DNA of 64,000 bases, taken from contig JBKJLC010000083.1 of the NCBI GenBank assembly GCA_046597055.1, positions 1-64,000 on the forward strand. Reading direction: 5' to 3'. This document shows, one piece after another, positions 6,380-53,203 of this stretch (position 1 is its first letter; every line of letters begins with the position of its first letter). Source of the stretch: Kofleriaceae bacterium (lineage in GTDB: Bacteria > Myxococcota_A > Polyangia > Haliangiales > Haliangiaceae). Under the pieces are notes generated by a model that was given only the letters and a program-made list of their open reading frames with translations, searched no databases and was not told the origin of the DNA. The translations under genes were made by a program, and so were the position numbers.

Positions 6380-7171
<792 letters not shown>

Positions 7172-7213
7172 TCCGCGCCCCCGCCGACCGCCACGCACCG
7201 GCCGACCGCGGCG

Positions 7214-8128: not shown

Positions 8129-8265
8129 AGGCGCCTCGGGCGAACGGGATCAACCGGTTGCGAACAGTTCGCGGGAACGTGGCCGCTCGCGTGACAACAC
8201 GCGGCAAGCCGGTGTAAGCAACGGGACCGCGTCGCGTTGTTTGACCCGGGTGAGCACAGACGGCA

Positions 8266-18570: not shown

Positions 18571-22962
<4,392 letters not shown>

Positions 22963-23040
22963 ACCGAGCGAACCCTCCGGCCCGCTCGCCCCATCATAGT
23001 CGCGGAGGCGACCGATTCGCCTGCTGGAGTGCGCTTCATC

Positions 23041-23700: not shown

Positions 23701-23849
23701 GGCCGCGACTATGCGCGACCGACCCGGGTCGCGCAAACGTGCGGGGATCCACGTGATCGAAACCATTGTTGATTCCGATCCTGGACCCCAGGGGATCTCT
23801 TCCCGGACCGGGTTTCCGTGTCAGAGGCGGCCCTTAGGTTGGTCGCGAG

Positions 23850-24998
23850 TTGCGGATCGAGTCCCTCACACTACCGTTCGGACGGGAGTATCTGGAAGCG
23901 CCGGTCACGCCGCGCCCGTCCGACCAGGCTCCCTCCCGCGCCCGCCGCCGCGGCCGCGCCAAGCTCGAGTCGGTCGCCCCGACGCCGCTCGAGGCCGCCA
24001 CCGTCGTCACCGCGCCCATCACTGCCACTGCCACTGCCACTGCCACTGCCACTGCCACTGCCGCTGCCGCTGCGGGTGCCGCTGCCGCGGCGGGTGCCGC
24101 TGCCGCTGCCGCGGCGGATGCGGGTGCGGCGGCCGCGGCCGCTGCCAATGCCGCGGCCGTCGCCACCCTCCGCCCCCAGGACGGCGTCTACGTCCTCGAC
24201 GTCGAGACCACCGGCACCGACCGCCGCCGCGACCAGGTCATCGAGCTCTGCATCCAGTTCGGCCTCGATGACCGCGCTCCCAGCCGCACCTGGCGCTTCA
24301 AGCCCTCGGTCGCGATGTCGCCCGGCGCCCAGGCGGTCCACGGCATCTCGATGGACGACCTCGCCGCCTGCCCGAGCTTCGCCGACTGCGTCGACGAGAT
24401 CGAAGCGATCTTCGCCGACGCCCGCGTGATCGTCGGCTACAACCTCACGTTCGACATCGACATGCTCCAGGCCGAGATGGAGCGCATCAAGCGGCCCTTG
24501 CTCGACGTCAGCGGCAAGACGATCGTCGATCCGTTCCGGCTCTGGCAGCAGTGCGAGCCGCGCAGCCTGCAGCACGCCCACCAGCGGTTCGTCGGGCAAG
24601 GCTTCGAGGCCGCGCACTCGGCCTCGGCCGACGTCGCCGCGACCGGCCGGGTCCTGTCGGGCATGCTGCGCAGCTTCAACCTCGACCACCACGACTGGAG
24701 CGCGATCGCCACGATCTGCGACCCGCAGCGGTCGAGCTGGGTGGGCCCGTCGCGGCATCTGCGCTGGGAGGGGACCACCATCATCCTCTCGTTCGGCAAG
24801 CACAGCGGCACCCCGCTCCACGAGCTCGACCGCGGCTACCTGCGCTGGGTCGCCGACAAGGACTTTCCGGTCCACGTGACCGTGATCTGCAAGAAGGCGC
24901 TCGAGCTCGCGCCTGACGAGCTGGTCGCGTGGGTGCGCCAGCAGTTCGGCGAGCCGGCCCCGACCGGCGCCCCGCCGTTCGCGGCGCCCGGCGGGTAG
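23850..24998 (+). CDS. DEDDh 3'-5' exonuclease (DnaQ/ExoX-like) with C-terminal FGKH domain
   Basis: LDVETTG, GYNLTFD, HSASADV; C-terminal LSFGKHSG..L...YLRW; start uncertain. Confidence 0.88.
   Translation: MRIESLTLPFGREYLEAPVTPRPSDQAPSRARRRGRAKLESVAPTPLEAATVVTAPITATATATATATATAAAAAGAAAAAGAAAAAAADAGAAAAAAANAAAVATLRPQDGVYVLDVETTGTDRRRDQVIELCIQFGLDDRAPSRTWRFKPSVAMSPGAQAVHGISMDDLAACPSFADCVDEIEAIFADARVIVGYNLTFDIDMLQAEMERIKRPLLDVSGKTIVDPFRLWQQCEPRSLQHAHQRFVGQGFEAAHSASADVAATGRVLSGMLRSFNLDHHDWSAIATICDPQRSSWVGPSRHLRWEGTTIILSFGKHSGTPLHELDRGYLRWVADKDFPVHVTVICKKALELAPDELVAWVRQQFGEPAPTGAPPFAAPGG
24021..24156 (+). repeat. In-frame hexamer low-complexity tract (ACTGCC x7 then GCTGCC/GCGGGT variants)
   Basis: Directly visible; encodes TATATATATATATAAAAAGAAAAAG. 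Confidence 0.9.
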
Positions 24999-25006
24999 CC
25001 AACCCG

Positions 25007-25453
25007 TCAGCGCGGGACCCGCGCCGCCAGCTCGTTCGCCGAGATCAGGCCTTCGACGCGCGCGCGCTCGGTGCCATCGGGCGTCAGGAACAGGACCGTC
25101 GGCGTTGCGTGCGCCGACCAGCGATCCTGGAAGGCGAGATCGTCCTCGTCGTTCTCGGTGACGTCGATCCGGACCCGCACCCAGCCTTCGAGCGCGGCCC
25201 GCACGGTCCGGGTCTGGTAGTGGCGAGCGAGCTCCTTGCATGGCGCGCACCAGCTCGCGGTCACGTCGACCATCACGCCTTTCGCGCCCCCCGCGCGGGC
25301 CCGTGCCAGCCCGTGCTCGAGGTCGGTCTCCCAGCGCGGCGCCACGATCGGGCCGGAGCCCGACGCCCGTGGACGAGCTGGAGCATCGCGATCGCATCCC
25401 GCGAGTAACATGGTGGCCGCGAGCACGACCCGGGCGAGCGATGCTGGCGTCAC
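25007..25453 (-). CDS. Thioredoxin-family lipoprotein
   Basis: LLAGC lipobox, TASWCAPCK, TPTVLF. Confidence 0.88.
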   Translation of the reverse strand: MTPASLARVVLAATMLLAGCDRDAPARPRASGSGPIVAPRWETDLEHGLARARAGGAKGVMVDVTASWCAPCKELARHYQTRTVRAALEGWVRVRIDVTENDEDDLAFQDRWSAHATPTVLFLTPDGTERARVEGLISANELAARVPR

Positions 25454-25884
25454 GGGACGACCGCCGGGGCAGGCGTCGACGGCGACGCGATCGCGCCCGG
25501 CGGCAGGCTCCGGCCGGGCTCGTCGAGCCAGCCGCGGTGCTCCGCGCGCGCGCGGCCGCAGCGCTGGTCCTCGTGCACGCCGTACCCGGCGGACGACGCG
25601 AGCAGGACGCCCAGGACGCCATACGTGATGCCGAGCCCGCGCACCTCGGCGGGCTCGGGCTCCTCGGGGGCCCCGTTGATCATCGCCGCCGCGGCGAGGC
25701 CGGTCAGGCCAGCGAGGACCGCATCGACGGCGACGGCGAGCCTCCCTTCGGAGCAGGTCGGCAGCTGGTCGCGACGGTAGCCGCTAGGCAGGCGCTCGAC
25801 CCCCACGAACGAACAGCCGGTGACGAGCGGGGCGAGGAGGGCGAGCGTGAAGAGACGGCGGGCCGGGAGGCTCATACCGCGCAC
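25450..25884 (-). CDS. Hypothetical membrane/lipoprotein
   Basis: LVTGC lipobox-like, two hydrophobic segments, 4-bp overlap with the thioredoxin gene. Confidence 0.6.
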   Translation of the reverse strand: MRGMSLPARRLFTLALLAPLVTGCSFVGVERLPSGYRRDQLPTCSEGRLAVAVDAVLAGLTGLAAAAMINGAPEEPEPAEVRGLGITYGVLGVLLASSAGYGVHEDQRCGRARAEHRGWLDEPGRSLPPGAIASPSTPAPAVVP

Positions 25885-25998
25885 GTGTCGTCCGGACCGG
25901 TCCGCGGTTGCGTCGCGTTCGTGACGCAGCCGGCCTGCCCTCGCCGTCGGTCCGTGCGATCGTGCCGGCGCGTGTCGCGCGGTCCACGGTCAGCACGG

Positions 25999-28900
25999 GT
26001 GACGACGCCGGCGCTCGAGCGATCGCTGCCGTCGGGGCTGGTGACGCTGGGGCCGGTGGTCGATGGCGGCGTGGTCGCGCACGGCGACGACGAGCAGGCC
26101 GAGCACGAGCTGCTGGGGTTCCTCGCCGAGCACCTGGCGACCCTGCCGCCGGCGCAGGCGGCGCGCTACTTCCTGCCCGAGGGCGTCGAGGTGATCACGG
26201 TGGAGGTCGCGCTGGATCCCGGCCTGCCGACCCGGCTGCGGCCGCCGCGCCTGGTCGGCGTGGCGTGCGTGGTGGTGCCGCACGGGGTCGGCGAGCGCAG
26301 CGAGGCGACCGGGGGTGGGGACCCTGCCAGCTTCGCTGGTGGGGCGGGGGGCAACCCTCCCGGTGGGATCGACCGGTGGGGCTTCGTGCCGGCGCTCGAC
26401 GCGTCGTTCTTCGTGCACCGGCGCGAGGACTTCCTCGAGGTCGCGCGCCGCGAGATCGCCCGGGTCGCCCGCGCCCGTGGGCTCGACGGCGATGACTGGC
26501 GGCGGGTGTTGCCCGCGCTCGATACCCAGGTGGTCCCGCTCGAGCTGACGGTGCGGTTCGCCGCGGCCACCGAGGCCACCGGCGATCGGCTGGCGGCCGA
26601 GCACAGGCGGGTCGCGGCCGAGGTCCTCGACGCGATCGCGGTGCGGCTGGCCGAGCGGGTGCGCGGCGGCGGCGTCGAGCTGGTCGGCCGCGACCGCGAG
26701 CTGGCGTCGCTCGACGCGCTGCTCGGTGGCCGCGATCGGCTGTCGGTGCTGCTGAGCGGCGACGAGGCGGTCGGCAAGACCGCGCTGGTGCTGGCCTGGG
26801 CGCGGCGCCACCCGGCCCGGCCGGCGTGGGTGACCTCGGTGGCCCAGCTGGTCGCCGGTGCCTCGGGCTTCGGCGAGGCCGAGGCCCGGATGCAGTCGAT
26901 CTTCGGCGCCGCCGAGGCGCTCGACGCGGTGCTGTACTTCGAGGACTTCGGCAGCCTGTTCCGCGAGCGGCCCGAGGAGGGCGGCCTCGACGTCGCCGCG
27001 GTGGTCCGCCGGAACATCGTCGAAGGCCGGGTCCGGGTGGTCGCCGAGATCACGCCGTTCGCGCTCGAGCGCGCCGAGCGTCGCGACGTCGGCCTGGTCG
27101 GCGCGATGACCCGGGTGCCGCTGGCGCCGATGACGCCGGCGCAGGCGCTGGTGGTCGCACGCGCCCACGCCACTCACTGGCGGCGGGCCGAGCCGCGCCG
27201 GCCGCAGCTCGCCGACGCGACGGTGGCGGTCGCGGTCGAGCTGGCGCGGCGCTACCTGCCGTACCGGATGTTCCCGGGCAAGGCGGTGCGGCTGCTCGAC
27301 GAGCTGCGATCCGCTCGCGACGGTGCGGTCGGGCTCGACGGCGCGCCACTCGAGCTCGGGCCCGAGGATGCCTACGAAGGGTTCTCGCTGGTCACCGGCA
27401 TTCCCACGTTTCTCCTGCGCGACGACCAGGCGATGCGGGTCGGCGAGCTGGTTGCCCGGCTGCGCACGCGCATGATCGGCCAGGACGTCGCGGTGCAGCG
27501 GGTCGCCGAGACGCTGTGCACGGTGAAGGCGCAGCTGCAGCCGGCCGACAAGCCGCTGGCGACCTTCCTGTTCGTGGGCCCCACCGGCGTCGGCAAGACC
27601 GAGCTGGCGCGCAGCCTCGCGCACCTGCTGTTCGGCGGCGAGGAGCGGCTGGTCCGCTTCGACATGAGCGAGTACGCCGATCCGTGGGCGGCCGAGCGGC
27701 TGATCCGCGGTTCCGGTGACGGCGACGGCCTCCTGACCTCGCGGGTGCGCGAGCAGCCGTTCTCGGTCGTGCTGCTCGACGAGATCGAGAAGGCGCACCC
27801 GGCGGTGCACGATCTGCTGCTCCAGGTCGCAGGCGAGGGCCGGCTCACCGATGCGCGCGGCCGCACCAGCTACTTCCACAACACGATCATCATCCTCACG
27901 TCGAACCTCGGCGCGCACCACGGCGGCGGCGCGGTCGGCCTGCGCGCGAGCAGCGGCGACGGACGCGAGCGCGAGCTCGGCCGCTATCAGGCGGCGGTCG
28001 CGACCGCCTTTCGGCCCGAGATGCTCAACCGCTTCGACGCGGTGATCGCCTTCCATCGCCTGAGCGAGGCCGAGGTCGCCGACGTCGCGTGCCTGCAGGT
28101 CGCCAGGCTGGCCGACCGGCGCGGGCTGGTCCAGGCCGCGGTCGGGCTCGACGTGAGCGAGCGAGCGCTTGCGGCGCTGGCGGTGGGCGGCTACTCGGCC
28201 GCGTACGGCGTGCGCGCGCTGCGCCGGCACCTCGATGAGCAGGTGGTGGCGCCGGCCGCGCGGCTGCTGGCCCGGGTCGGCAGCGAGGGCCACGGCGGGC
28301 TGCTCGCGGTGCGGGTCGACGGCGAGCCGGTCGGGCTCGGGCTGTCCGAGGGCTCGCACCTCGGCACCGTCGCGCCCGCCGCCGGGCCGGTCGAGGCTCC
28401 CGCGTTGCGGGTCAGCCTGTACCGGCGGGTCGGCGCCAGCGCGCGCCGCGGTGCCCAGGGCCTGACCCTGCTCGCCGAGGTCCGGCGGGAGGCCGACACC
28501 TGGCTCGCGCGCGATGTCGCCACCGAGGTGCGAGATCAGGTCAGCTGGCTCGAGGCGCAGCTGGCGCAGACCGACGAGTCGCGCGCTCGCGCGGGACGCG
28601 CGGGCCGGTCCCGGCGCGACGTCGGTGGCAAGGCGCGCAAGGAGGCGCTGTCGGCCGAGCAGCGCCAGCAGATGGCGACCGAGCTGCATCGGCTGCGGCG
28701 CGGCTGGGACGACGCCCACGCGGCGCGCGACGAGATCACCGCGGCCGAGGACCTCGGGCTCGAGGTCGCGCTCGCGGGCGGCGCGATCGAGGAGGTCGCG
28801 GCCATGGCCGGGCCGCTGGCGGCGCGGTTCGCGACCGCGATGTTCTGGCTGGCGGTGGCGCGGCTCGAGCAGCGCGACGCGATCACGCTGGCGCTGTCGG

Positions 28901-29496
28901 CGCCCGAGCTGTCGGTGCCGCTGGAGCGCTGGCTCGGCGCGCTCCTGGCCGAGGCCCCGGCCCGGCGCTGGACGATCACCGGGCACCTGACCGGCGTGCG
29001 CGACCCGGCGGTGGCGTGGCCGGAGTCGCGGGTGTGGGGGCCGCCGCGCTCGGCGGCGTGGCTGTCCGAGCGCCTCGCTGGCGAGGGCGGGATCCGCAAC
29101 GTGCTGCTGCGGGTCCGCGGCCCCGGCGCGGCGTGCCTGCTCGGCCTCGAGGCCGGCACCCATCGCTTCGTCGGCATCGCCAAGGTGAGCCCGTGCCACC
29201 TGGTGGTGCGGCGGATCGCCTTGACCGCCGACTTCGACGACGACGCCTGGCTGCGGGTCGGCGCGCTCGCGGCGCCGGCCCAGCCCGGCAAGGGCAACTT
29301 CGAGCGGCTCCATGCGGCGACCGACCACGTGATGGTCATGGGCCGCCGGGTCGAGGTGGCGTGGCCGCGCTACATGGCGCAGCTCGAGGAGGTCGGGCTG
29401 GCGCGGATCGCGCGCGCGCTCGCCGACGACGAGGCGGTCGCCGACCTGTACCCGATCGAGCTGACCGAGCCGGCCGCGCCCGAGACCGAGGCGTGA
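25999..29496 (+). CDS. ClpA/B-like double AAA+ ATPase 1 with C-terminal release-factor-like domain
   Basis: D1 GDEAVGKT / YFED / FPGKAVRLL; D2 GPTGVGKTE, RFDMSEY, LLDEIEKAH, FRPEMLNRFD, YGVRAL; C-terminal IRNVLLRVRGPGAACLLGLEAGTHRF. Start GTG 25999 is an estimate. Confidence 0.88.
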   Translation: MTTPALERSLPSGLVTLGPVVDGGVVAHGDDEQAEHELLGFLAEHLATLPPAQAARYFLPEGVEVITVEVALDPGLPTRLRPPRLVGVACVVVPHGVGERSEATGGGDPASFAGGAGGNPPGGIDRWGFVPALDASFFVHRREDFLEVARREIARVARARGLDGDDWRRVLPALDTQVVPLELTVRFAAATEATGDRLAAEHRRVAAEVLDAIAVRLAERVRGGGVELVGRDRELASLDALLGGRDRLSVLLSGDEAVGKTALVLAWARRHPARPAWVTSVAQLVAGASGFGEAEARMQSIFGAAEALDAVLYFEDFGSLFRERPEEGGLDVAAVVRRNIVEGRVRVVAEITPFALERAERRDVGLVGAMTRVPLAPMTPAQALVVARAHATHWRRAEPRRPQLADATVAVAVELARRYLPYRMFPGKAVRLLDELRSARDGAVGLDGAPLELGPEDAYEGFSLVTGIPTFLLRDDQAMRVGELVARLRTRMIGQDVAVQRVAETLCTVKAQLQPADKPLATFLFVGPTGVGKTELARSLAHLLFGGEERLVRFDMSEYADPWAAERLIRGSGDGDGLLTSRVREQPFSVVLLDEIEKAHPAVHDLLLQVAGEGRLTDARGRTSYFHNTIIILTSNLGAHHGGGAVGLRASSGDGRERELGRYQAAVATAFRPEMLNRFDAVIAFHRLSEAEVADVACLQVARLADRRGLVQAAVGLDVSERALAALAVGGYSAAYGVRALRRHLDEQVVAPAARLLARVGSEGHGGLLAVRVDGEPVGLGLSEGSHLGTVAPAAGPVEAPALRVSLYRRVGASARRGAQGLTLLAEVRREADTWLARDVATEVRDQVSWLEAQLAQTDESRARAGRAGRSRRDVGGKARKEALSAEQRQQMATELHRLRRGWDDAHAARDEITAAEDLGLEVALAGGAIEEVAAMAGPLAARFATAMFWLAVARLEQRDAITLALSAPELSVPLERWLGALLAEAPARRWTITGHLTGVRDPAVAWPESRVWGPPRSAAWLSERLAGEGGIRNVLLRVRGPGAACLLGLEAGTHRFVGIAKVSPCHLVVRRIALTADFDDDAWLRVGALAAPAQPGKGNFERLHAATDHVMVMGRRVEVAWPRYMAQLEEVGLARIARALADDEAVADLYPIELTEPAAPETEA
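26290..26367 (+). repeat. Palindromic REP-like insert inside Clp ATPase 1 coding sequence
   Basis: GAGCGCAGCGAG, then ACCGGGGG...CCTCCCGGT outer stem with inner CCAGC-TTC-GCTGG hairpin; atypical codons encoding ATGGGDPASFAGGAGGNPPGG. Confidence 0.55.
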
Positions 29497-32400
29497 GGCG
29501 CACGCTCGCGATCGCGGTCTACGAGCACCGGGTGGACTCCAAGGTCACCTGGTGGCCGCTGGTCCCGCGCGCGTGGGGCGGGCCGATCACCGGCACCAGC
29601 GAGGTCCGCATGCGCGAGGAGTTCGGCAAGCTGGTGCGCGAGGCGCTGCGCCTGGTCGATCCCGCCGAGCACGAGCTGTGGGACGCGCCGCCCGGCCTGC
29701 GCCTGCACCGGCTCCACCTCGATCTGGCGACCCAGGGCCCCAACCCGAAGCGGGTGGCCGGGTCGTTCCCGCTGATCCTCGAGCCGCGCTGGTTCACCGA
29801 CGAGCGGCAGCGGCTGCTCGCGTATCACCCGCGCGATCGGTCCGCGTGGTTCGACGCCGACGATCTTGCCGAGGCGGAGGTGCTGGCGCCCCACTTCGCC
29901 CGCAAGGCCTGGGCGGCGCTCGACGCCGACCAGCTCGAGGAGCTCAAGGTCACCGGCAAGGATCGCCTGCTGGTGGTGTCGTACAGCGTCGAGCCGACCT
30001 CGCTGCTCGATCGGCTCAAGCCCGAGGCGACCGAGCGCGGTCGCGCCGGCCTCGGCCGCGCCACCCGCCGGGTGCTCGGCGACCTCGCGGTCGACCAGAC
30101 CGCGCGCGCGATCGACCGGACCCTGCCGATCGGCGAGCCGCGCGAGCCGTATCGCGGCCAGCTCGGGCGCCTGCTCGGTGGCGACCGGCCGCGCTCGACC
30201 GTGCTGATCGGTCGTCCGGGATCCGGACGGTCGACCCTGCTCGCGCGCTGGGTCGACGATCGGCTGGCCGAGGATGGCTGGTTCCTGCACCGCAACGCCG
30301 ATCGCATCCACCGGGTGTGGCGGCTGTCGGGCAAGCGGCTGATCGCCGGCATGCAGTACTTCGGCGACTGGGAGGCGCGCTGTCTCGACGTGGCCGAGGA
30401 CGCGCGCAAGCACCGCGGGATCCTGTGGTTCGACGACCTCCACCTGTTCGGGAGGCTCGGCATCACCCGCCAGTCCGAGCGCAGCTTCGCCGACTTCTTC
30501 CGGGGCCCGGTCCAGCGCGGCGAGCTGGTGGTGATCGGCACCGCGACCCGCGAGCAGCTGGCGCGGCTCGAGGACGACGCGCCCGCGTTCGCCGGCCTGT
30601 TCACGCGGATCGCGATCGAGCCGACCACCGCCGAGCAGACCCGCGCGCTCCTGCTGGCCGAGGTTCGCCGGCTCGAGCGCGAACATCCGGTCGCGATCCA
30701 CCCGTTCGTGCCGCGCACGGTGGCCGAGCTGGCGTCGGCGCTGTGGGCGTGGACGGCGGCGCCCGGGGCCGCGGTCGAGCTGCTGCGCAAGCTGGTCGCG
30801 TGGCGGCTGGCGGCCCAGTCGACCGAGGAGGGCGGCGAGCGGCTCGAGATCGGCCCCCGCGACGCGGTCACCCTGGCCGCGCGCGAGACCGGCCTGCCCG
30901 AGCACCTGATCACCCTCGACCAGCCGCTCGACCCGGCCGCGGTCGAGGCCCACTTCGCGGCCCGCGTGATCGGTCAGGACGAGGCGGTCGCGGTCGCCAC
31001 CGAGGTGGTGCTCAAGGTCCGCGCCGGCCTGACCGACGCCAGCCGGCCGCTCGGCGTCTACCTGTTCACCGGGCCGACCGGCACCGGCAAGACCGAGCTG
31101 GCGACCGCGCTCGCCGAGTACCTCTACGGGGATCCGAAGCGGCTCCTGCGCTTCGACATGAGCGAGCTGTCGGGACCCGATGCGGTCGCGCGCCTCATCG
31201 GCGACCGGTTCGCGCCCGAGGGGCTCTTGACCCAGCGCATCCGCGAGCAGCCGTTCGCGGTCGTGCTGCTCGACGAGATCGAGAAGGCCCACCCGGCGGT
31301 GCTGGCGCTCTTGCTCCAGCTGTTCGACGAGGGCCGGCTCACCGACGCGGCGGGCGACGCGGCCAGCTTCCGCCACGCCGTGATCGTGATGACCTCGAAC
31401 CTCGGTGCCAAGGTGGCGGCGCCGATCGGCTTCGGCGACGGCGCCGCGGTGGTGATGGGCGACATCGCGCGCGCGGTGCGGGAGTTCTTCCCGCCCGAGC
31501 TGTGGAACCGCATCGATCAGGTCGTGCGGTTCCGGCCGCTCACGCCCGAGGTCGCGGCCCGGGTGGTCGACAAGGAGCTGGCCAAGCTGCTCGGCCGCCG
31601 CGGCCTGCGCGAGCGCAACGTGTTCGTCTACGCCGGGCGGGCGATCCGCGAGCGCGCGGTCGCGCAGGCGTTCGACAGTCGCTACGGCGCGCGCACGGTC
31701 AAGCGCTGGCTCGAGGACCACGTCGCGACCCGGCTGGCCGAGGCGCTCACCACCGCGCCGCCGGCCCGGATGACGGTCGCGCGCCTGCGCGAGGACGGCG
31801 CCACCGTCGGGGTCGACCTCGAGGTGCTGGCCGAGGTCGAGTCGCTGCCCGGCGACTACCCGATGGCCGAGCTGCGCGAGCTGTCGGCGTCGGCCCTGGT
31901 GCCGCACGCCGAGGCGATGGCCGACGAGATCGACCAGGTCCTGGCGAGCCGCGAGCTGATCGCGCAGGAGGAGGCCGCGCGCACCGGTCCGCGCGCCGCC
32001 GAGGTCCGCTACTACGCCGAGGGCTATCGCGACGAGCTGCTGCGGATGCGGACGATCCTGGTCGGGCAGGGGCCCCCGGCCCGCGCCGGGCGCACGCTCG
32101 AGGAGTCGGATGACGAGCTCACCCACGATCTCGAGGTCCACGATCGCGAGTCGGTGATCCACCAGTCCTCGTACCGGCGCGGCTACGTCGAGTCGAAGAT
32201 CCGCTTCGACCGGCGCAGCCTCGGCCGCGGCGCGCAGCGGTTCGATCAGCGGACCGGGCTCGAGGCGCTGGCGCGGGCGCGGCTCCTGATCGATCACGTC
32301 GGCGAGCTCGCCGATCCTGACGCTCACGTGGTGACGGTCGAGCTGGCCGCGGTCGGCCGCGGGGTGGCGAGCTGGAGCCTGGCCCGGGTGCTGGCGTCGC

Positions 32401-32882
32401 TGCCCCACGACGAACTGGCGGTCCGGACCCGGGATGGTCGGGTCACCACGACCACGCCGGTCGCCGGTGCCCACGTGGTCCACGCGGTGCTGGTGGTGCG
32501 CGAGCTGTTCGCCGCGCCGGCGCTGGTGGCCGAGCACGGCAGCCACGTGTTCCAGTCGCTCGCGGGCGAGCCCGAGATCGTGCGGGTGTCGGTCACGCCG
32601 GGGCCAGCCGAGCCGCGCGCGCGGGTGCGCGCGCACGAGGTGGCGCTGGCCGGCTTCGAGGCGGCGGTCGCGGCGGGCCAGCCCGGGATCAACCCCGAGC
32701 CGCTGTTGCCGGTGGTGCGGGTGCTGTCGATCGCGCCGGCGCCGCGCCCCGGTCAGCCGATGACGGTCGACGTCGAGGACTTCATCACCGGGTTCACCGG
32801 CCGGCTGTCGGTGCCCAACGAGCTGGCGGCGATCAACGGCTGCCGCGAGATCCGCTGGAGTCGGGTCGGAGGTCGGCGATGA
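29493..32882 (+). CDS. ClpA/B-like double AAA+ ATPase 2 with C-terminal release-factor-like domain
   Basis: GTGA overlap with gene 1; D1 GRPGSGRS / WFDD; D2 GPTGTGKTE, LLDEIEKAH, PIGFG, YGARTV; C-terminal AEHGSHVF...VVRV...VEDFITG. Confidence 0.88.
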   Translation: MRRTLAIAVYEHRVDSKVTWWPLVPRAWGGPITGTSEVRMREEFGKLVREALRLVDPAEHELWDAPPGLRLHRLHLDLATQGPNPKRVAGSFPLILEPRWFTDERQRLLAYHPRDRSAWFDADDLAEAEVLAPHFARKAWAALDADQLEELKVTGKDRLLVVSYSVEPTSLLDRLKPEATERGRAGLGRATRRVLGDLAVDQTARAIDRTLPIGEPREPYRGQLGRLLGGDRPRSTVLIGRPGSGRSTLLARWVDDRLAEDGWFLHRNADRIHRVWRLSGKRLIAGMQYFGDWEARCLDVAEDARKHRGILWFDDLHLFGRLGITRQSERSFADFFRGPVQRGELVVIGTATREQLARLEDDAPAFAGLFTRIAIEPTTAEQTRALLLAEVRRLEREHPVAIHPFVPRTVAELASALWAWTAAPGAAVELLRKLVAWRLAAQSTEEGGERLEIGPRDAVTLAARETGLPEHLITLDQPLDPAAVEAHFAARVIGQDEAVAVATEVVLKVRAGLTDASRPLGVYLFTGPTGTGKTELATALAEYLYGDPKRLLRFDMSELSGPDAVARLIGDRFAPEGLLTQRIREQPFAVVLLDEIEKAHPAVLALLLQLFDEGRLTDAAGDAASFRHAVIVMTSNLGAKVAAPIGFGDGAAVVMGDIARAVREFFPPELWNRIDQVVRFRPLTPEVAARVVDKELAKLLGRRGLRERNVFVYAGRAIRERAVAQAFDSRYGARTVKRWLEDHVATRLAEALTTAPPARMTVARLREDGATVGVDLEVLAEVESLPGDYPMAELRELSASALVPHAEAMADEIDQVLASRELIAQEEAARTGPRAAEVRYYAEGYRDELLRMRTILVGQGPPARAGRTLEESDDELTHDLEVHDRESVIHQSSYRRGYVESKIRFDRRSLGRGAQRFDQRTGLEALARARLLIDHVGELADPDAHVVTVELAAVGRGVASWSLARVLASLPHDELAVRTRDGRVTTTTPVAGAHVVHAVLVVRELFAAPALVAEHGSHVFQSLAGEPEIVRVSVTPGPAEPRARVRAHEVALAGFEAAVAAGQPGINPEPLLPVVRVLSIAPAPRPGQPMTVDVEDFITGFTGRLSVPNELAAINGCREIRWSRVGGRR

Positions 32883-35185
32883 CCCGGCCGAGCTTCCGCG
32901 TGTTCTTCACCGAGCACGACAACGGCAAGGTGTCGGGCGTCGTGATCCGCCGCCGCGAGCTGGTGTTCGACCCGCCGCCGCCGGCAGCGTGGGGCGACGG
33001 CCAGGACGACGTGCTGGCCGCGCTCGAGCCAGGCTTGACCGCCGCGGTCGCCGAGGACGGCCCGGGCCGCTACCTGTTCACCGAGGACCTCGAGCTGCGC
33101 CGGGTGGCGGTCGAGGTCCGGCCCCGGGTGGCCGCCGATGGCGCCTGGGTGCTCGGCAGCCGCACCATCCCGGTCCGGATCGGCTTCGCCGCGTTCGCCG
33201 AGGTCACCGCCGGCACCAGCGCCGGGCGGGCCGCGACCGACGGCGGCTTTCGCGTGCTGGTCCCGCGCCATCGCTGGTCGCTGGTGCTCGAGAGCCTCGA
33301 CGACGCCGCCGAGGTGCTGCGCCACGCGGTGTTCGCCGCGATGCTCGGCGACACGCCGGCGAGCGTGTTCGACTTCCGCGCCGGCGTCCGCGAGTGGATC
33401 GAGGTCTGGGAGCTGCCGCACCTGGCCGCGGCCGACGATGAGGCGCAGGAAGCCGAGCCGCCGCCGCCGCCGACCCTGGCCGCGGTCGCCGAGGACTGGA
33501 GCCGCAAGATCCAGCGCAAGCAGCTGGTGCCGCCGGTCGGCGATCCACCGGGCGCGACCGCGCTGGTGGTCGCGCTCGAGCGCACCCCACCACGCTCGGT
33601 GCTGCTGGTCGGCGACAGCGGGGTCGGCAAGACCGCGATCGTGCGCCGCGCCGCCAAGCACCTCGCCGAGCGGAGCAAGGGCAAGGACAGCGAGCCGCGG
33701 CGGCTGTGGGCGACCTCGGCCGGCCACGTCACCGCCGGCATGGTCTACCTCGGCATGTGGCAGGACCGTTGCCTCACGCTCGCGCGCGAGCTGTCAGCGA
33801 CCGAGGACTGGCTGTACGTCGATCGCCTGGTCGACCTGCTGGCGCCGCAGCCCGACGGCGCCAGCATCGCCGACCTCCTGGCCCCGGCGGTGGTCGCCGG
33901 CGAGCTGCGCATGATCGCCGAGGCGTCGGAGTCCGAGCTGGCCCGGTGCCGCCGCCGCAACCAGGCGTTCGTCGACGCGTTCGAGGTGATCCGCGTCGAC
34001 GAGCCCGGGCCCGACCAGGTGATCCCGATGCTGGTCACCCACCAGCACCGCAAGGACCCCGAGGTCACCTGGCACCCGGGCGCGCTGCGCCGCGCGATTG
34101 CGCTGCTCGCCGGGTTCCGCCGCGATCTGCGCTTTCCCGGCAAGGCGTTCGGCTTCCTCGACTGGTGGAACCAGGACGCGCACAAGCCGCCGCGCCAGGT
34201 GCGGCCCGGTGACGTCGCCGCCGCCTACGCCCGCTGGTCGGGCCTGCCGATCGAGCTCATCACCGACGAGCGCCCGACCGGGCCGGCCGAGATCGCGGCG
34301 GCGCTGCGCGCCGGCGTGGTCGGTCAAGACGCCGCGTGCGCGGTGGTCGCGCGGGCGCTGGCGCGCTTCAAGGTCGGCCTCGACGATCCCGAGCGACCGG
34401 TCGCCTCACTGCTGTTCGCCGGCCCGACCGGCGTCGGCAAGACCGAGCTCGCCAAGCAGATCGCGACCTACCTGTTCGGCGCCGGCGACCGCCTGGTCCG
34501 CATCGATCTGTCCGAGTACATGACGCCCGGCGCGGCCGGCCGTCTGCTCGAGGTCGGCAGCGGCGCGACCTCGCTCGCCGAGCAGGTCCGGCGCCAGCCG
34601 CTGTGCGTGGTCCTGCTCGACGAGATCGAGAAGGCGCACCCCGAGGTGTTCGACCTCCTGCTCGGCGTGCTCGGCGAGGGCCGGCTCACCGACACCATGG
34701 GTCGCCTGGTCGACTTCCGCATGGCGGTCATCGTGATGACCTCGAACCTCGGCGCCGGCGGCCGTGCCGCGCCCGGCTTCGGCGCGGACGCGCTCCCCGA
34801 CCACGCCGCCGCGGTCCGGGCCCACTTCCGGCCCGAGCTGATCGGTCGGCTCGATCACGTCGTGTCGTTCCGCAGCCTGTCACCGGCCGACATCGAGCGC
34901 ATCGTCGACCTCGAGCTGGCCAAGATCCGCCGCCGGCCCGGCCTCGTGCAGCGCGGCCTGACCCTGCGGCTGTCGACCCCGGCGCGCGCCTGGCTCGCGA
35001 GCCACGGCTTCGACGCCGGCATGGGCGCCCGACCCCTGCGCCGGCTGCTCGAGGAGGTCGTGGTCGCGCCGCTCGCCGTCCGCATGGCCGGCGATCCCGG
35101 CCTGCGCGACCGCCTGCTCGGCATCGTCACGGCCGGCGAGGCGGCCGGGGCCGGGGTGGACGAGCTGATCGTCCTGCCGGCGTGA
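32879..35185 (+). CDS. ClpA/B-like double AAA+ ATPase 3 (no C-terminal extension)
   Basis: ATGA overlap with gene 2; D1 GDSGVGKT / LYVDR / FPGKA; D2 GPTGVGKTE, LLDEIEKAH, FRPELIGRLD, MGARPL. Confidence 0.9.
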   Translation: MTRPSFRVFFTEHDNGKVSGVVIRRRELVFDPPPPAAWGDGQDDVLAALEPGLTAAVAEDGPGRYLFTEDLELRRVAVEVRPRVAADGAWVLGSRTIPVRIGFAAFAEVTAGTSAGRAATDGGFRVLVPRHRWSLVLESLDDAAEVLRHAVFAAMLGDTPASVFDFRAGVREWIEVWELPHLAAADDEAQEAEPPPPPTLAAVAEDWSRKIQRKQLVPPVGDPPGATALVVALERTPPRSVLLVGDSGVGKTAIVRRAAKHLAERSKGKDSEPRRLWATSAGHVTAGMVYLGMWQDRCLTLARELSATEDWLYVDRLVDLLAPQPDGASIADLLAPAVVAGELRMIAEASESELARCRRRNQAFVDAFEVIRVDEPGPDQVIPMLVTHQHRKDPEVTWHPGALRRAIALLAGFRRDLRFPGKAFGFLDWWNQDAHKPPRQVRPGDVAAAYARWSGLPIELITDERPTGPAEIAAALRAGVVGQDAACAVVARALARFKVGLDDPERPVASLLFAGPTGVGKTELAKQIATYLFGAGDRLVRIDLSEYMTPGAAGRLLEVGSGATSLAEQVRRQPLCVVLLDEIEKAHPEVFDLLLGVLGEGRLTDTMGRLVDFRMAVIVMTSNLGAGGRAAPGFGADALPDHAAAVRAHFRPELIGRLDHVVSFRSLSPADIERIVDLELAKIRRRPGLVQRGLTLRLSTPARAWLASHGFDAGMGARPLRRLLEEVVVAPLAVRMAGDPGLRDRLLGIVTAGEAAGAGVDELIVLPA

Positions 35186-35216
35186 GTGCCGGGCAGGCTC
35201 GCAGTACGTTGGTTCG

Positions 35217-35528
35217 ATGGAAGCGGACGACGAGCTCCCCGAGCTGCTCAAACGGGTTCGAAATCGGTCAACCTTCCTGGTGTTCGTTCGAGCACTCGAA
35301 CGGGATCGACGCGCGGCAGCCGAGCTGGAACGCGCCTCGCCGTCATCGCCGTACGGTCCCGGCGCCCGCGGCTGGGAGAACGGTACGATCGAGAGCTTTC
35401 TCGAGTCGGCGGTGGGCTGGGCCGAGGACGTGATGCCGCTCCGGGGCGCGCGAGCGGCCTGGTTTCCCGCTGCGCCCTCGTGGGCGGCGTTCGCGCGGTT
35501 TCTCTACATGGGCAAGCTCTACGAGTAG
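35217..35528 (+). CDS. Small conserved protein (WEN..I..FLE...W / PSW..FA..L..GK.YE type, DUF7660-like)
   Basis: GWENGTIESFLESAVGWAED and PSWAAFARFLYMGKLYE; family name from memory. Confidence 0.75.
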   Translation: MEADDELPELLKRVRNRSTFLVFVRALERDRRAAAELERASPSSPYGPGARGWENGTIESFLESAVGWAEDVMPLRGARAAWFPAAPSWAAFARFLYMGKLYE

Positions 35529-35977
35529 CCGGACGCCGACCTCGGTCAGAGGGGGCCCGCAGGGTTGAACCCATCTCGATGTGATCAAAGACGTCCCTCT
35601 TTTCCGGATTCTCTGAGCCGGTGCGAAGCGCCGTCGTCGGGCAGCGGGCAGCGGGCAGCCGGCAGCGGGCCGAGCATCGAGTTGCCCTCGAAGCCGTTCC
35701 TCTTTCCGGTCGCCATCCTGGGCGAGGCGGCGAACTCGTCGGGGAGATCGGCCCGGATCTCGGGCGGCTGGCGGAAGTCGCGGTGCCGCGTTGGCCTGCG
35801 AGAGTGGCGCGAGGGGCCACGGGTTCGGCCGGTCAGCAGCGCGATCAGAACGACCGCGGCCACCGCGGACACGTGCGCCTCCCGCGGGCCGGGCCAGGGA
35901 CGACCGCCGACGCATGGCAGGGCGCACGGGCCCGTGGTGGTGCCGGGATGCCGCCTGGCGCCAGCGACCGCGGTGGC

Positions 35978-36703
35978 CTATGGCGCGGGCCCCGGCACCT
36001 CGCGCGGATCGATCGGGCCGTGCCGTCGCCAGCCGACCCTGAGCAGCCAGCTCGAGGCCGGCACCACCGGTAGCGGCTCCCCGCCCATCGCGGCTCCTGA
36101 CGGCACGGTGCCCGGACGCCAGCCGTCGAAGCGGAGCCCGCTGGAGTACGGATCGACCTGGGCCCGGCGCTGGGCGCCGCCGCCGAGGTCCTCGCGATGC
36201 CGCCGCCAGTTGTTGATGACGTAGCAGAGCGCGTGACGTGCCTGCCGCGGCGTGCGGATGACCGTGACGTGATATCGCGACAGGAAGACCTGGCCGCGGT
36301 GTGGTCGCGCCAGCCGGCGGTCGCGCGTGATCGCCTGGTTGAGCAAGCGTGCCGCCGAGATCTCGAAACCCTGCATGCCGCGCGCGAGCGCGCGCTCGTC
36401 GTCGGCCTCGACCAGCAGGTGGACGTGATTGTGCTGGATGCTGATGTGCACGATGCGGAAGTCATGGCGCGGTAGCGTCGTGAGCATCGCGCGACGGAGC
36501 GCCTGGTAGGCACTGCGGCGGCGGAGCCGACCGACCTCGCGGCTCACCGCCAGGACGACATGGACCGGCTGGGCGGGCGTGATGGGCGCGCGCTTGCGGA
36601 CGCGCTGGTGCGGGCGTCGGCCGGCTGCGGGCTTGCGGCCGGCGCCGGGCCGGCGACCGCCGTGGGTCCGGAACTCGAGCGTGGTCTGCCGCGAGGCCGC
36701 CAT
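35978..36703 (-). mobile_element. REP-associated tyrosine transposase (RAYT, IS200/Y1 HUH family)
   Basis: HGGRRPGAGRKP N-terminus, PVHV, SIQHNHVHLLVEA (HUH), RYH, YVINNWRRH catalytic Tyr, DPYSSG. Confidence 0.88.
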
Positions 36704-36853
36704 TCTTGATTGCACCGATATTATCAGGTTGCTGGTTCTGGTCAATGAGCGATGGCAGGATCGCGAACAGCACGGTTTGGCCTCGATCGTGTGCACCCGG
36801 CAGGCCTTGTTCGGGGCGGCGTGCTGAGGTGGGCGGCATGGTGCTCGTGGCTG

Positions 36854-37022
36854 GGCTGTGGACTTGACGCGCCTGTGGAGAGCGCGCCTGCCGACGCGTG
36901 CGCCGCGAGCGGGCAGGGAGCGCCGGCGCGACCCCGCACAGGCGCTTGGAAAGCCGCGCCTTCGGGTCGTGGGCATGCGGAGTCGCGGTTGGTGGGCGCG
37001 CCTTTCCACAAGGCCCACAGCC
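36854..37022. other. Non-coding multi-stem palindromic element upstream of RAYT
   Basis: GGCTGTGG (36854) / CCACAGCC (37015); GCGCCTGTG (36869) / CACAGGCGC (36937); TGGAAAG (36947) / CTTTCCA (37002). Confidence 0.65.
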
Positions 37023-37097
37023 GTGCCGACCCCTCACCCTGATCAAAAACTTTCCGGATCCGGAGCGATGCGGGGAGGATCCCAGCGCGGCATCCCA

Positions 37098-37153: not shown

Positions 37154-38622
<1,469 letters not shown>

Positions 38623-38626
<4 letters not shown>

Positions 38627-39807
38627 GCGACGTCGAGCTCCGCGCCGTCGAGGGTGATCACGTCGCCGGTGATGAGCTGGACCCGGCCGTGCGCGATCGC
38701 GGCGCCGCCGAGCTGGAGCGGCCCGGTGGCGCGGCCCAGGTGCGGTCGACCCGCGATGAACACGAGGTCGCACGCCAGGCCGTGGCTGGCGAGATCGATC
38801 CGGTCGCCGGGTCGCGCCAGCAGCAGGGTGCGGCCGCGGTCGAGCCCGTTGTTCGCGGTCAGGGTCAAGACCGGCGGCTCGCCGGCGACCGCGTAGTCGA
38901 TCCGGCAGTCCTCGCCGAGCTCGAGCTGGCCGTGATCGACCAGCGGCATCTTGCCGGCGATCGGCATGCCGCCGATCAGCGTGCCGTTGCGCGAGCCGGC
39001 GTCGCGCACGACGAACCGCGGCTGGTCACCGACCTCGACCTCGGCGTGGCGGCGGGAGACCCCGCCGGCCCGCAGCGGCAGATCGCACAGCGCGTCGCGG
39101 CCGAGCCCGATGACCGGCGCCGCGCACACGATGACCGGGCTGCCGGTGCGCGGGCGCAGCTCGACCCGCCCCGACGTGATCAGCCGCGCCTGCAGCTCGT
39201 CGAGCAGCCGCCGGTGCTCGCGGCTGGGCGCGCGGGCCAGCGCCGCCTCCAGCGCGAGCCGCGCGTCATCGCGCCGGCCCAGCCGCAGGTGGACCTCGTA
39301 GTCGGCGAACGCCTCACGCGCGGCGTGCTCGCTCGACGAGCGACGCTCGTCCTCGGCCATCGCGGTCTCCATCAGCTCGACGTGGCCGCCGTCCGAGTAG
39401 GCCTGGGCCGCGGCCGGGAAGTCGTCGAGGTGCTCGTAGGCCTTGCCGGCCTCGCGGTGCTCGCCGCCGGCGGTCAGCAGCGCGGCCGCTTCGCGCACCT
39501 TGTCGTGGTCGCGCCGGGTCGCGATGCCCTCGGCGAGCGCCTTGGCCAGGAGCGCGCGGCCGAGCGCGGCCGACGCCACCCGCCGTAGCTCGGCGTCGTC
39601 ACCGGCCCAGTGGATCGCGTCGCGCAGCGCGGTGATCTCGGCGGCGCGATCGTTGGCGCGGGCGGCGCGGGCCAGGTGCATGCGCACCGCCGACGGGAAG
39701 TCGCCGGCCAGCGCATAGTGCTGGGCGGCCGCGTCGAGGTTGCCGGCCGCCTCGGCGGCGCGCGCCGCGCGGTGGTCGGCGGACAGCCAGCGGCGGAAGC
39801 TGCTCAC
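38623..39807 (-). CDS. TPR-like + FHA domain protein
   Basis: LGRDALCD...GVSRRHA...DAGSRNGT FHA motifs; helical repeat N-terminus. Confidence 0.88.
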
Positions 39808-39830: not shown

Positions 39831-41189
<1,359 letters not shown>

Positions 41190-41253
41190 CCCGGCTGGCA
41201 GACCACGGTAACGGCACCCGACCGCGGTCGCGGACGGCTATACTCATGCGAGC

Positions 41254-42195
41254 GTGCGTGTCCGCCTCGTCCTGACGGCCTGCTTGCTGGGCGCCGCGTC
41301 CGCGGTGGCGGCTGCGCAGCCGGCTCCGATCGTCGACGATCGGCCGGCCACGCCGGGCGCGATCGAGGCCGGCGCCGTCCTGGTCGCCGAGGGCACCGCG
41401 CTCGGCGGCCAGAACCGCTACGAGCAGGCCCTCACCCGCTTCCTGGTCGCGGCGGATCGCCACCCGTCCGCGACCCACGACTGCCTGGTCGCGCTGGCCT
41501 ACGCGCGCATCGGTCGGCTGACGCCGGCGCGGCTCTGGCTCGACGCCGCGGCCCGGCGCGGCGACGTCCGGCCGCCGTGGTGCGCGTCGACCCTGGTCGA
41601 CGACGTGACCGCCCAGCTCGCCACCCGCGGCTTCGTCGCGATCGAGGTGGTGGTCACCCCGGCCGACGCCGAGGTCTGGATCGGCGACGACGTGCACGTC
41701 CGCGGCGGTCGCACGATCTGGCTGCCGCCGGGCGAGGTCGCGGTGCGCGCGCAGCGCACCGGTCACCAGCCGGTCGAGCGCCGCGATCCGGTCGTGGCCG
41801 GCGCGCGGCTCGTGCTCGACCTGCCCGCGATCGTCGCGACGCCGGATCGACCGGTGCGCGCCGCGCCGCCGCCGTCCGCGTCGCGATCGCGGCTGCCGTG
41901 GCTCGTCGCCGGCGCCGGCGGCGCTGCGCTGATCGCCGGCGGCGTGTTCCACGCGCTGGCGGCGGGCACCCGCGCCGATGCCAACGCCGAGTCGCCGGCC
42001 AGCGGTTCGTTCGCGACCCTCGACGCCCGGTTCGTCCAGCAGCGCGCGGTCGCGCTGTCGCTCTACGGGGCCGGTGCGGTCGGGGTCGGGGTCGGGCTGT
42101 GGCTGGCGACCCGCAGCGGCGACGAGCCGCAGCGCGGCGCCGGGCTCACGGTCGGGCGCGGTGGCGGCGCGGTCACCTGGAGCGGGACCTGGTGA
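41254..42195 (+). CDS. Secreted/membrane TPR + PEGA-like protein
   Basis: Signal peptide, TPR helices, VTPADAEVWIG PEGA-like segment, C-terminal hydrophobic hairpin ending in W. Confidence 0.75.
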   Translation: MRVRLVLTACLLGAASAVAAAQPAPIVDDRPATPGAIEAGAVLVAEGTALGGQNRYEQALTRFLVAADRHPSATHDCLVALAYARIGRLTPARLWLDAAARRGDVRPPWCASTLVDDVTAQLATRGFVAIEVVVTPADAEVWIGDDVHVRGGRTIWLPPGEVAVRAQRTGHQPVERRDPVVAGARLVLDLPAIVATPDRPVRAAPPPSASRSRLPWLVAGAGGAALIAGGVFHALAAGTRADANAESPASGSFATLDARFVQQRAVALSLYGAGAVGVGVGLWLATRSGDEPQRGAGLTVGRGGGAVTWSGTW

Positions 42196-51944: not shown

Positions 51945-52568
51945 TCAGGGGGTGGCGCCGAGCATGCCCCGACGCTCGATGAAGTCGACGATCGCCGCGA
52001 CCCCGGCGCCGTCCTTGATGCACGTGAACACGAACGGGCGGTCGCCGCGCATGCGGCGGCTGTCGCGGTCCATGACCTCGAGCGAGGCCCCGACGTGGGG
52101 CGCCAGGTCGGTCTTGTTGATCACCAGCAGGTCGGACCGGGTGATGCCGGGGCCGCCCTTGCGCGGAATCTTGTCGCCGGCGGCGACGTCGATCACGTAC
52201 AGGGTGAGGTCCGACAGCTCGGGGCTGAAGGTCGCCGCCAGGTTGTCGCCGCCGCTCTCGATGATCACGAGCTCGAGCTCGGGGAAGCGTCGGACCAGCT
52301 CGTCGATCGCGCCCAGGTTGATCGACGCGTCCTCGCGGATCGCGGTGTGCGGGCAGCCCCCGGTCTCGACGCCGACGATGCGATCGGCCGGGAGCGCCTC
52401 GCTGCGCAGCAAGAACTCGGCGTCCTCGCGCGTGTAGATGTCGTTGGTGACGACCGCCATCTGGTAGCGATCGCGCAGCGCCTTGCACAGCGCGTCGACG
52501 AGGGCGGTCTTGCCGGAGCCGACGGGGCCGCCGACGCCGACACGGAGGAGGTGGTGGTCGTGGGTCAT
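51945..52568 (-). CDS. ureG: Urease accessory GTPase UreG
   Basis: [48 protein letters not shown]. Confidence 0.97.
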
Positions 52569-52582
52569 CAGTGGGTCTCCCG

Positions 52583-53134: not shown

Positions 53135-53145
53135 GTCGGCTCGTC

Positions 53146-53195
53146 CGGCTCGGGGTCGGGGTCGGGGTCGTGGTCGTGGTCGGGGTCGGGGTCGG
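53146..53195. repeat. Hexamer tandem repeat (TCGGGG/TCGTGG units)
   Basis: Directly visible upstream of ureF. Confidence 0.8.
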
Positions 53196-53203
53196 CTACG
53201 CGA

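Follow-up and report, generated by a model that had tools for sequence, protein, structure and literature searches.

Three co-inherited Clp-like AAA+ ATPases with release-factor-like extensions in a Kofleriaceae genome, and the ribosome-directed machine that they may form

ClpA, ClpB, ClpC and ClpV act as homohexamers, so what would a bacterium build from three consecutive genes for three different Clp-like ATPases? The question is raised by a locus of a Kofleriaceae bacterium (GenBank assembly GCA_046597055.1, contig JBKJLC010000083.1, positions 1 to 64,000 of the forward strand; this whole stretch of 64,000 nucleotides, with a G+C content of about 74%, is called the window below), where three plus-strand frames follow one another with stops at 29496, 32882 and 35185. 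A preliminary description, made from the letters alone, had read them as genes for proteins of about 1165, 1129 and 768 residues joined by a GTGA and an ATGA overlap, and this was borne out by the frames and start codons and by the starts of the orthologues, whose aligned positions match those of all three genes, which we name P1, P2 and P3. The frame on the 5' side of 25999 is open from 25240, and because it runs across minus-strand genes at 25007-25453 and 25450-25884, position 25999 is the likely start of P1. We found that the three proteins belong to a Clp-like family of their own, which is passed on as a triple and has, as judged from its motifs, a degenerate first AAA+ module (D1), a catalytic second one (D2) and complementary losses of the pore loops. 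We also found that the C-terminal part of P1, in its predicted structure, folds like a class-I release factor (RF), with domain 1 and a decoding superdomain 2/4 and no GGQ domain.

25999..29496, plus strand: P1, start GTG, 1165 residues; N-domain, degenerate D1, active-type D2, RF-like C-terminal module
29493..29496, plus strand: GTGA overlap of 4 nucleotides between the TGA stop of P1 and the GTG start of P2, from the coordinates and start codons
29493..32882, plus strand: P2, start GTG, 1129 residues; N-domain, degenerate D1, active-type D2, probable diverged RF-like C-terminal module
32879..32882, plus strand: ATGA overlap of 4 nucleotides between the TGA stop of P2 and the ATG start of P3, from the coordinates and start codons
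32879..35185, plus strand: P3, start ATG, 768 residues; N-domain, dead D1, active-type D2, no C-terminal extension

The membership of these proteins in the Clp/Hsp100 group is clear from D2, where Pfam finds AAA_2 strongly (134-135 bits) together with ClpB_D2-small in P1, P2 and P3, with D1 being matched weakly by AAA_16 and AAA_lid_9. The preliminary description had also given each protein two AAA+ modules and a non-canonical N-domain, with no Clp-N repeats and no ClpB middle (M) domain, and this reading holds: no Clp_N match was found by Pfam at E<=0.01 in any of the three, the N-domain is specific to the family, and the ClpB models match in two stretches that skip the M-domain while the ClpA models match contiguously. 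Over D1 and D2 the three proteins share 37-38% pairwise identity, and their scores with the NCBIfam models of ClpA, ClpB and ClpV (279-331 bits) are far below the equivalog cut-offs of 885-1232 bits, compared with 1078 bits for the true ClpA encoded elsewhere in the host genome. Behind D2, P1 and P2 continue into C-terminal extensions of 386 and 355 residues, which the preliminary description did not contain.

25999..26682, plus strand: P1 N-domain, residues 1-228; family-specific, homologous to the N-domains of P2 and P3
26683..27408, plus strand: P1 D1, about residues 229-470; Pfam AAA_16 at 227-280 and AAA_lid_9 at 405-438; Walker A GDEAVGKT, Walker B YFED, no arginine fingers, pore tyrosine replaced by glycine
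27445..28278, plus strand: P1 D2 and D2-small, about residues 483-760; AAA_2 at 518-681 (133.9 bits), ClpB_D2-small at 688-758; catalytic motifs canonical, pore loop shortened and without aromatic residue, VGL at the ClpP-loop position
28336..29493, plus strand: P1 C-terminal extension, residues 780-1165; class-I RF-like in its model, with helical domain 1 and decoding superdomain 2/4, without GGQ domain 3
29493..30134, plus strand: P2 N-domain, residues 1-214, from the alignment; related to the P3 N-domain by hhalign
30135..30902, plus strand: P2 D1, about residues 215-470; Walker A GRPGSGRS, Walker B WFDD, no arginine fingers, pore-loop tyrosine present
30939..31757, plus strand: P2 D2 and D2-small, about residues 483-755; AAA_2 at 518-676 (135.1 bits), D2-small at 683-753; catalytic motifs canonical, short pore loop with aromatic residue (R-F-A-P-E-G), IGF at the ClpP-loop position
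31815..32879, plus strand: P2 C-terminal extension, residues 775-1129; probable diverged relative of the P1-type RF-like module
32879..33535, plus strand: P3 N-domain, residues 1-219; alpha/beta domain in its AlphaFold2 (AF2) model
33536..34243, plus strand: P3 D1, about residues 220-455; Walker A GDSGVGKT, Walker B YVDR, no arginine fingers, pore loop AGM-Y-LGMWQ
34286..35098, plus strand: P3 D2 and D2-small, about residues 470-740; AAA_2 at 506-660 (134.2 bits), D2-small at 667-736; catalytic motifs canonical, GYVG removed by a 6-residue deletion

Is the triple a peculiarity of one contig, or is it kept in evolution? Residues 1-440 of P3 were searched in 401 Myxococcota genomes, and a full-length P3 orthologue was found in 17 of them (E <= 9e-65), which we call clade 1, while many more genomes contain adjacent Clp-like open reading frames (ORFs) of about 1100-1200, 1100-1200 and 780-830 residues. 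Twenty loci were fetched, 15 of them with a P3 orthologue, and in 13 of these 15 the genes stand in the order P1-P2-P3 on the same strand (with locus L120 being fragmented); the other two are a locus cut by the end of its contig after P2 and locus L113, where P3 is alone. The overlaps are kept as well: with the window counted in, 13 of 15 loci have a start available at -4 where P2 meets P3 (one more has it at -8), and 10 of 14 have one at -4 where P1 meets P2 (one more has it at -1). No flanking ORF is common between loci across the 20, except with the same-genus locus L111. The homologues are therefore found in conserved triplets and not singly, their 4-nucleotide coupling is conserved, and the three genes form a self-contained, co-inherited module. 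A second clade of triples with the same long-long-short layout (subunits A, B and C) occurs in loci L126-L130 of Myxococcota; its short subunit was found in 24 of the 401 genomes (E<=1e-40), 19 of which are within the 34 genomes of a single family (f20). Both clades are together in two genomes, G201 (contigs C47 and C13) and G301 (C1166 and C1222), and one or the other is present in 39 of the 401. Outside the phylum, a long-long-short triple of 1184, 1147 and 779 residues was found in a Pirellulaceae metagenome-assembled genome, a Planctomycete with 53% G+C (contig L001). This was the only useful yield of a profile search of genome contigs with the P3 alignment, since the profile caught D2 patterns and thereby generic ClpB and ClpC loci, the rest of which served as tree references. 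A family-specific hidden Markov model (HMM) of D1 was also tried for the census and dropped, given that its training members scored at least 164 bits and the ClpA, ClpB and ClpC references up to 141, too thin a margin.

The phylogeny agrees with this picture of co-inheritance. In a quick IQ-TREE tree (LG+G4; 73 rows, 757 columns; the fragmented L120_P1 and L120_P2 and also L001_A and L001_B left out), with six ClpB, six ClpC-like and the host's own ClpA as references and no ClpV, the whole family is one clade with a support of 100 in the Shimodaira-Hasegawa-like approximate likelihood ratio test (SH-aLRT) and a branch of 0.69, outside the ClpB, ClpC-like and ClpA references and not nested in any of them. 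P1 (13 rows), P2 (14) and P3 (16) are each monophyletic with SH-aLRT 100, clade-2 A, B and C each at 99, and the P1, P2 and P3 trees contain matching inner groups, namely (window, L111), L112 and L119; L114 with L116; L115 with L118; L122 with L123; and L124 with L125. The profiles of the C-terminal extensions pair clade-2 A with P1 (hhalign 97.1%, E 7.1e-11) and clade-2 B with P2 (77.3%, E 2e-5), and this pairing favours one old triplication.

The AAA+ motifs, compared over 60 family rows and 4 references, indicate how the work may be divided among the modules. In D1 the Walker A G-K-T/S is mostly kept (G-R-S, as GSGRS, occurs only in P2 of the window and of L111, 2 of 14 P2 rows), while the Walker-B Asp-Glu and the ERRF arginines are found in 0 of 60 family rows and in 4 of 4 references; in place of the canonical Walker B there is F-[DE]-[DEN] in P1, [DE]-D in P2, and D-R, G-A or D-H in P3. 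In D1 of all three proteins the motifs for nucleotide binding are thus retained and the residues needed for hydrolysis lost. D315-R316 of P3, present in 14 orthologues, and its pore loop AGM-Y-LGMWQ are invariant, and the D1 pore-loop tyrosine is always present in P3, mostly in P2, and is replaced by glycine in P1. D2, in turn, is canonical across the family in Walker A, Walker B (LLDEIEKAH), sensor 1, arginine finger and the GAR sensor 2. Its GYVG loop has been lost by a deletion of about 6 residues, as seen in the residue alignment to Thermus thermophilus ClpB (1qvr), and the loop is short in nearly all rows; an aromatic pore residue remains in D2 of P2 only (R-[FWY]-x-P-x-G), and in clade 2 only in subunit C, so that in a ring made of P1 only both tiers would be without an aromatic pore loop. 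A tripeptide of hydrophobic residue, Gly and Phe or Leu stands at the position of the ClpP loop of ClpA and ClpC in 8 of 13 P1, 12 of 14 P2 and 11 of 16 P3 rows; the references of ClpA and ClpC have it too, and those of ClpB do not. The family thus shares with the class-I ClpA and ClpC the two tandem AAA+ modules, the AAA_2-type D2 with D2-small, the lack of an M-domain insertion (as in ClpA) and the x-G-F/L at the ClpP-docking-loop position, and differs from them in its other N-domain of about 220 residues, its D1 without Walker-B Glu and arginine fingers, its D2 with GYVG deleted, its separate clade, and in comprising three co-inherited paralogues, two of them with an RF-like C-terminus.

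Would these proteins then form three independent homohexamers, merely co-expressed, each dealing with its own class of substrate? We consider this unlikely, even if it would conform to the behaviour of the characterised Clp ATPases, to the lone P3 orthologue of L113 and to the existence of solo Clp-PCRF proteins of about 930 residues (described below). The conserved gene order and 4-nucleotide overlaps and the congruent phylogenies speak against it, and with P1 lacking an aromatic pore loop in either ring and the D2 aromatic residue confined to P2, some of the homo-rings would be without the usual grip on substrate. Moreover, all D1 modules have lost the arginine fingers and the Walker-B Glu, like the degenerate tiers of hetero-hexamers such as Pex1/Pex6, where D1 is degenerate and D2 is active. 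Pex1 and Pex6 are paralogous double-ring AAA+ subunits in one ring (PMC4490564); they differ from the present proteins in being eukaryotic, two in number and of the CDC48-type AAA rather than the Clp type. A hetero-oligomer of P1, P2 and P3, as suggested in the preliminary description, is what we infer from genes that are inherited together, are coupled in translation and have lost motifs in a complementary way.

The N-domains, of about 220 residues each, are related to one another by hhalign (P3-P1 88.9%, E 2.4e-6; P3-P2 86.8%, E 4.2e-6; P2-P1 67.8%, E 4.9e-5). The P3 N-domain was modelled by AF2 from 83 sequences with a predicted local distance difference test score (pLDDT) of 88.2, and this model has no Clp_N match, no Foldseek match at E<=1e-3 and no usable match in the ESM Atlas. 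The best row of VIA wide, the HicB N-domain with a fold like that of double-stranded RNA-binding domains, has Z 6.0, under the tool's stated background, as are the rows of HPF and of RF domain 3 at Z of about 4-4.5.

The evidence for a link with the ribosome comes from the C-terminal extensions. A profile built from 13 P1 extensions (hmmsearch against the PDB) finds RF2 and RF1 chains as its top matches, the best being 1gqe_A with E 8e-4; Pfam PCRF is weakly matched in 5 of 13 P1 orthologues; and hhalign against an RF1/RF2 alignment from the genomes of relatives gives 94.7%, E 6.3e-8, over 176 columns. The AF2 model of the P1 extension (30 sequences; pLDDT 90.6, predicted template modelling score 0.86) returned class-I RFs (RF1, RF2 and mtRF1) in 34 of 34 Foldseek matches at E<=1e-3, with RF2 5mdw_7 as the best (2.3e-7), and VIA placed it on RF1 1rq0_A with Z 13.6 over 238 residues at 4.3 Å. 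For the decoding superdomain alone, residues 177-367 of the model lie on RF1 102-349 (139-161 residues, 3.0-3.7 Å, Z 12-12.8), and about 100 RF residues, those of domain 3, have no counterpart in the P1 model. The GGQ tripeptide itself occurs in 2 of 38 extensions compared with 14 of 14 RFs. The P1 extension, as modelled, resembles RF1 and RF2 in how its domain 1 and decoding superdomain 2/4 are folded and ordered, and differs from them in having no inserted GGQ domain, in not conserving SPF/PxT and in being fused behind a double AAA+ motor. Among the bacterial RF versions treated in section 2.4 of Burroughs and Aravind 2019 (PMC6514570), namely RF1, RF2, ArfB and PrfH, all have kept the catalytic domain, with PrfH and ArfB having kept it while losing other parts, which is the opposite of the P1 extension; domain 1 is named there the GTPase-interacting domain.

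The P2 extension is probably a diverged version of the same module. Here three bridging proteins were helpful, the metagenome protein P0025 and a pair of solo Clp-PCRF proteins about 930 residues long, in which PCRF reaches 57.8, 48.4 and 37.7 bits against a Pfam cut-off of 24 and which align to RFs by hhalign at 99.4%, E 5.9e-21, with the GGQ region skipped. Against these bridging proteins the P1 extension gives 94.3% and the P2 extension 89.8% (E 1.8e-6), and P2 against P1 directly gives 41% (E 2.7e-4). All neighbours of the P2 extension by ESM features are PCRF clusters (0.85-0.79), which we take as a lead only. In clade 2, the A extension matches RFs at 97.1%, and Pfam PCRF is found in 1 of 11 extensions (E 0.015). 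The HMMs of the P1 and P2 extensions each retrieve their own class only and the RF HMM retrieves neither, the relationship being visible only by profile-profile and structure comparison.

P0025, of 1080 residues, is of the P3 type (61% identical to P3, with the same N-domain) and has a clear PCRF end without GGQ (57.8 bits); since it ends in this module, some P3-type subunits also appear to carry an RF-like arm. The solo proteins (L161:8349-11135, plus strand; L162:8158-10956, minus strand; ESM Atlas cluster 'ClpB_D2-small/PCRF') share the D1-D2-RF-like layout, their RF part being easier to recognise (PCRF 37.7-48.4 bits), and differ from the family in lacking its N-domain (the D1 Walker A is at about residue 50) and in being single genes; they are themselves uncharacterised. 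The solo gene of L161 starts 15 nucleotides after cysS (6835-8334). The P1 orthologue of L117 (G215:C2) has an extra end like the C-terminal domain of L7/L12 after its RF-like module, at about 6500-6640 (Pfam Ribosomal_L12, E 1.1e-4).

What, then, might the triple do? We suggest that P1, P2 and P3 would build a single hetero-hexamer with a double ring, such as (P1-P2-P3)x2, whose D1 tier would be structural and whose D2 tier would be the motor. The N-domains would pick the substrate, and the RF-like arms, on flexible linkers, would put the ring at the factor-binding side of ribosomes with a free or aberrant A site. The arms being unable to hydrolyse peptidyl-tRNA, a mechanical output would be expected, either ATP-driven splitting or the pulling out of a bound factor, of a tRNA or of a nascent chain, and the product may be passed to ClpP via the retained x-G-F/L loop. 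Such a hetero-hexamer with arms docking at the ribosomal A site, a mechanical output and possibly a coupling to ClpP is put forward tentatively, at slightly less than even confidence. A complex prediction for the P1 and P2 extensions gave a score of 0.00 with no answer returned and counts neither way. The mode of action may be likened to that of Dom34/Pelota, an inactive eRF1 paralogue, with ABCE1, or of Vms1 with Cdc48, with which it would share by analogy only the logic of an RF relative combined with an ATPase motor; the folds (aeRF1, ABC ATPase) are unrelated, the partners are separate and not fused, and no homology is claimed. Dom34, without the catalytic Gln, acts on stalled ribosomes, as noted in Burroughs and Aravind (PMC6514570).

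Several observations weigh against this proposal. The codon-reading tripeptides SPF/PxT are not conserved at the aligned position in the 13 P1 extensions, and the 20 loci have no conserved neighbour with a role in translation. The P2 extension compared directly with RFs gives 8.8%, with Pfam PCRF in 0 of 14, its RF likeness being carried by transitive evidence, and the clade-2 B extension has no RF signal (0.2%). The loss of the D2 pore-loop tyrosine argues against classical threading and makes a mechanical output uncertain. The P3 orthologue of L113 occurs without P1 or P2, and the tree is a quick LG+G4 one with composition warnings, which does not resolve how P1, P2, A, B and C branch from one another.

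Some of these points would suit a module that has been exapted and now works off the ribosome, as an oligomerisation, autoregulatory or substrate/adaptor arm of a specialised unfoldase, possibly a partner of ClpP, that might serve, for instance, in the development of myxobacteria or in proteostasis under stress. The codon-recognition motifs are not conserved, no conserved translation neighbours were found, the extensions of the P2 type and of the clade-2 B type have diverged until they can hardly be recognised, and the x-G-F/L loop of ClpP-binding Clp ATPases is retained in a genome that contains ClpP. We nonetheless consider it somewhat unlikely, given that the full RF architecture of domain 1 and 2/4 is kept in P1 at high model confidence and across phyla, which is not expected of a mere spacer, and that the fusion to the L7/L12 C-terminal domain and the linkage to cysS have a flavour of translation.

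A role in conflict or defence had been named in the preliminary description beside one in ribosome-linked quality control. The ribosome link has gained from the GGQ-less RF-like extensions, while the defence part is left without specific support, as PADLOC gave generic AAA+ matches only. A defence module could sense damage done to ribosomes by phages or toxins, or could act as an effector that blocks A sites with a dead RF to stop translation, travelling as a mobile three-gene unit. This would fit the patchy spread (clade 1 in 17 and clade 2 in 24 of the 401 genomes), the triple in a Planctomycete, the lack of conserved neighbours, the coexistence of both clades in G201 and G301, and the gene for an IS200-like Y1 transposase directly downstream in the window; there is also the precedent of an RF paralogue, PrfH-RtcB, being argued to counter ribosome-jamming effectors (PMC6514570, section 2.4). 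The PADLOC matches are, however, partial and limited to the D2 region (DolB and PDC-M37B, E 1e-17 to 1e-28; weakly IetA, TRIP13 and mad8), no toxin-like effector domain is present, the agreement of the P1, P2 and P3 trees across many families is explained equally well by long co-inheritance and by transfer, and the neighbouring genes are ordinary chromosomal ones. We rate a defence role as improbable, and the filing of the module as a defence system was rejected for want of a specific PADLOC match.

If the ribosome-directed ring were to be right, the combination of a Clp motor with a GGQ-less RF would provide a direct physical link from Hsp100 proteostasis to the ribosomal A site, and a three-paralogue ring would break the rule of homohexameric bacterial Clp/Hsp100 proteins. 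Among other bacterial ribosome-rescue routes are tmRNA, ArfA with RF2, RqcH, HflX and MutS2, which work as hydrolases, GTPases or nucleases, and to our knowledge no bacterial rescue route uses an AAA+ unfoldase with its own release-factor mimic. ArfB and PrfH-RtcB are also counted among such routes (PMC6514570). A full-text search of the literature found no description of a Clp/Hsp100-release-factor fusion or of a three-paralogue Clp operon, with the supplements of PMC6514570 possibly listing further architectures; where Kaur et al. 2020 (PMC7159879) mention ClpN and ClpS domains, they do so in other systems only. In its widest form, the claim would be that of a new bacterial ribosome-directed machine, a three-paralogue hetero-hexameric Hsp100 motor with dead RF arms as A-site probes that rescues, splits or clears ribosomes and possibly feeds ClpP, an independent counterpart of Dom34-ABCE1 and Vms1-Cdc48 and the first natural heteromeric Clp/Hsp100 ring; taken as a whole, we regard this as doubtful. 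The family is in any case large enough for study, with 253 clusters (50% identity) of the P2-type extension at E<=1e-3 and 39 of 401 Myxococcota genomes with either clade.

As for the surroundings, the preliminary description had seen no clpP, clpS or type VI secretion (T6SS) genes nearby, and we agree, since a scan of 42 other candidate ORFs of the window turned up none of these families. Elsewhere the host genome contains, beside its ClpA, a ClpB-like gene and a single ClpP; no ClpV reaches the cut-off, which is why the tree has no ClpV reference. No sigma-70 consensus match was found in 24800-36200, and two regulatory features may be listed for the operon.

25885..25998, plus strand: intergenic region, presumed to hold the operon promoter and ribosome-binding site, divergent from a minus-strand lipoprotein-like ORF; from reading of the sequence
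35479..35495, plus strand: weak terminator-like hairpin about 300 nucleotides 3' of P3; 2 found against 1.1 expected in shuffles, not significant

Divergent from P1 are a small ORF with an N-terminal lipoprotein-type signal peptide (25450-25884, minus strand) and a thioredoxin-like gene with a WCAPC motif (25007-25453, minus strand; Thioredoxin_7 E 2.1e-11). Further upstream, a DEDDh/RNase_T exonuclease (23838-24998, plus strand) has a weak QSregVF_b tail, is conserved in the same-genus locus only, and matches the PADLOC models DEDDh and PDC-S48 (E 2.8e-26 and 4.5e-23). The IS200-like Y1 transposase (35978-37033, minus strand; Y1_Tnp E 3.1e-8) adjoins P3 downstream and has no counterpart in L111. 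In other loci, the genes inserted in L130 and the neighbours in L001 and L162 (TonB receptor, HAD hydrolase, signal peptidase) are uninformative. At 18571-23040 (minus strand) the window encodes a protein of about 1460-1490 residues in which a Ser/Thr kinase is joined to an AAA_16 (STAND-like) NTPase and to TPR repeats; more kinases are found at 37154-39025 (minus strand) and within 39843-43754 (plus strand), together with an FHA-sigma54 activator at 39831-41237 (minus strand). Urease accessory genes of the UreG/CobW type and UreF lie at 51945-53332 (minus strand), followed by a gene for an ice-binding-like protein at 53630-54727 (plus strand; PF11999, E 3.9e-71).

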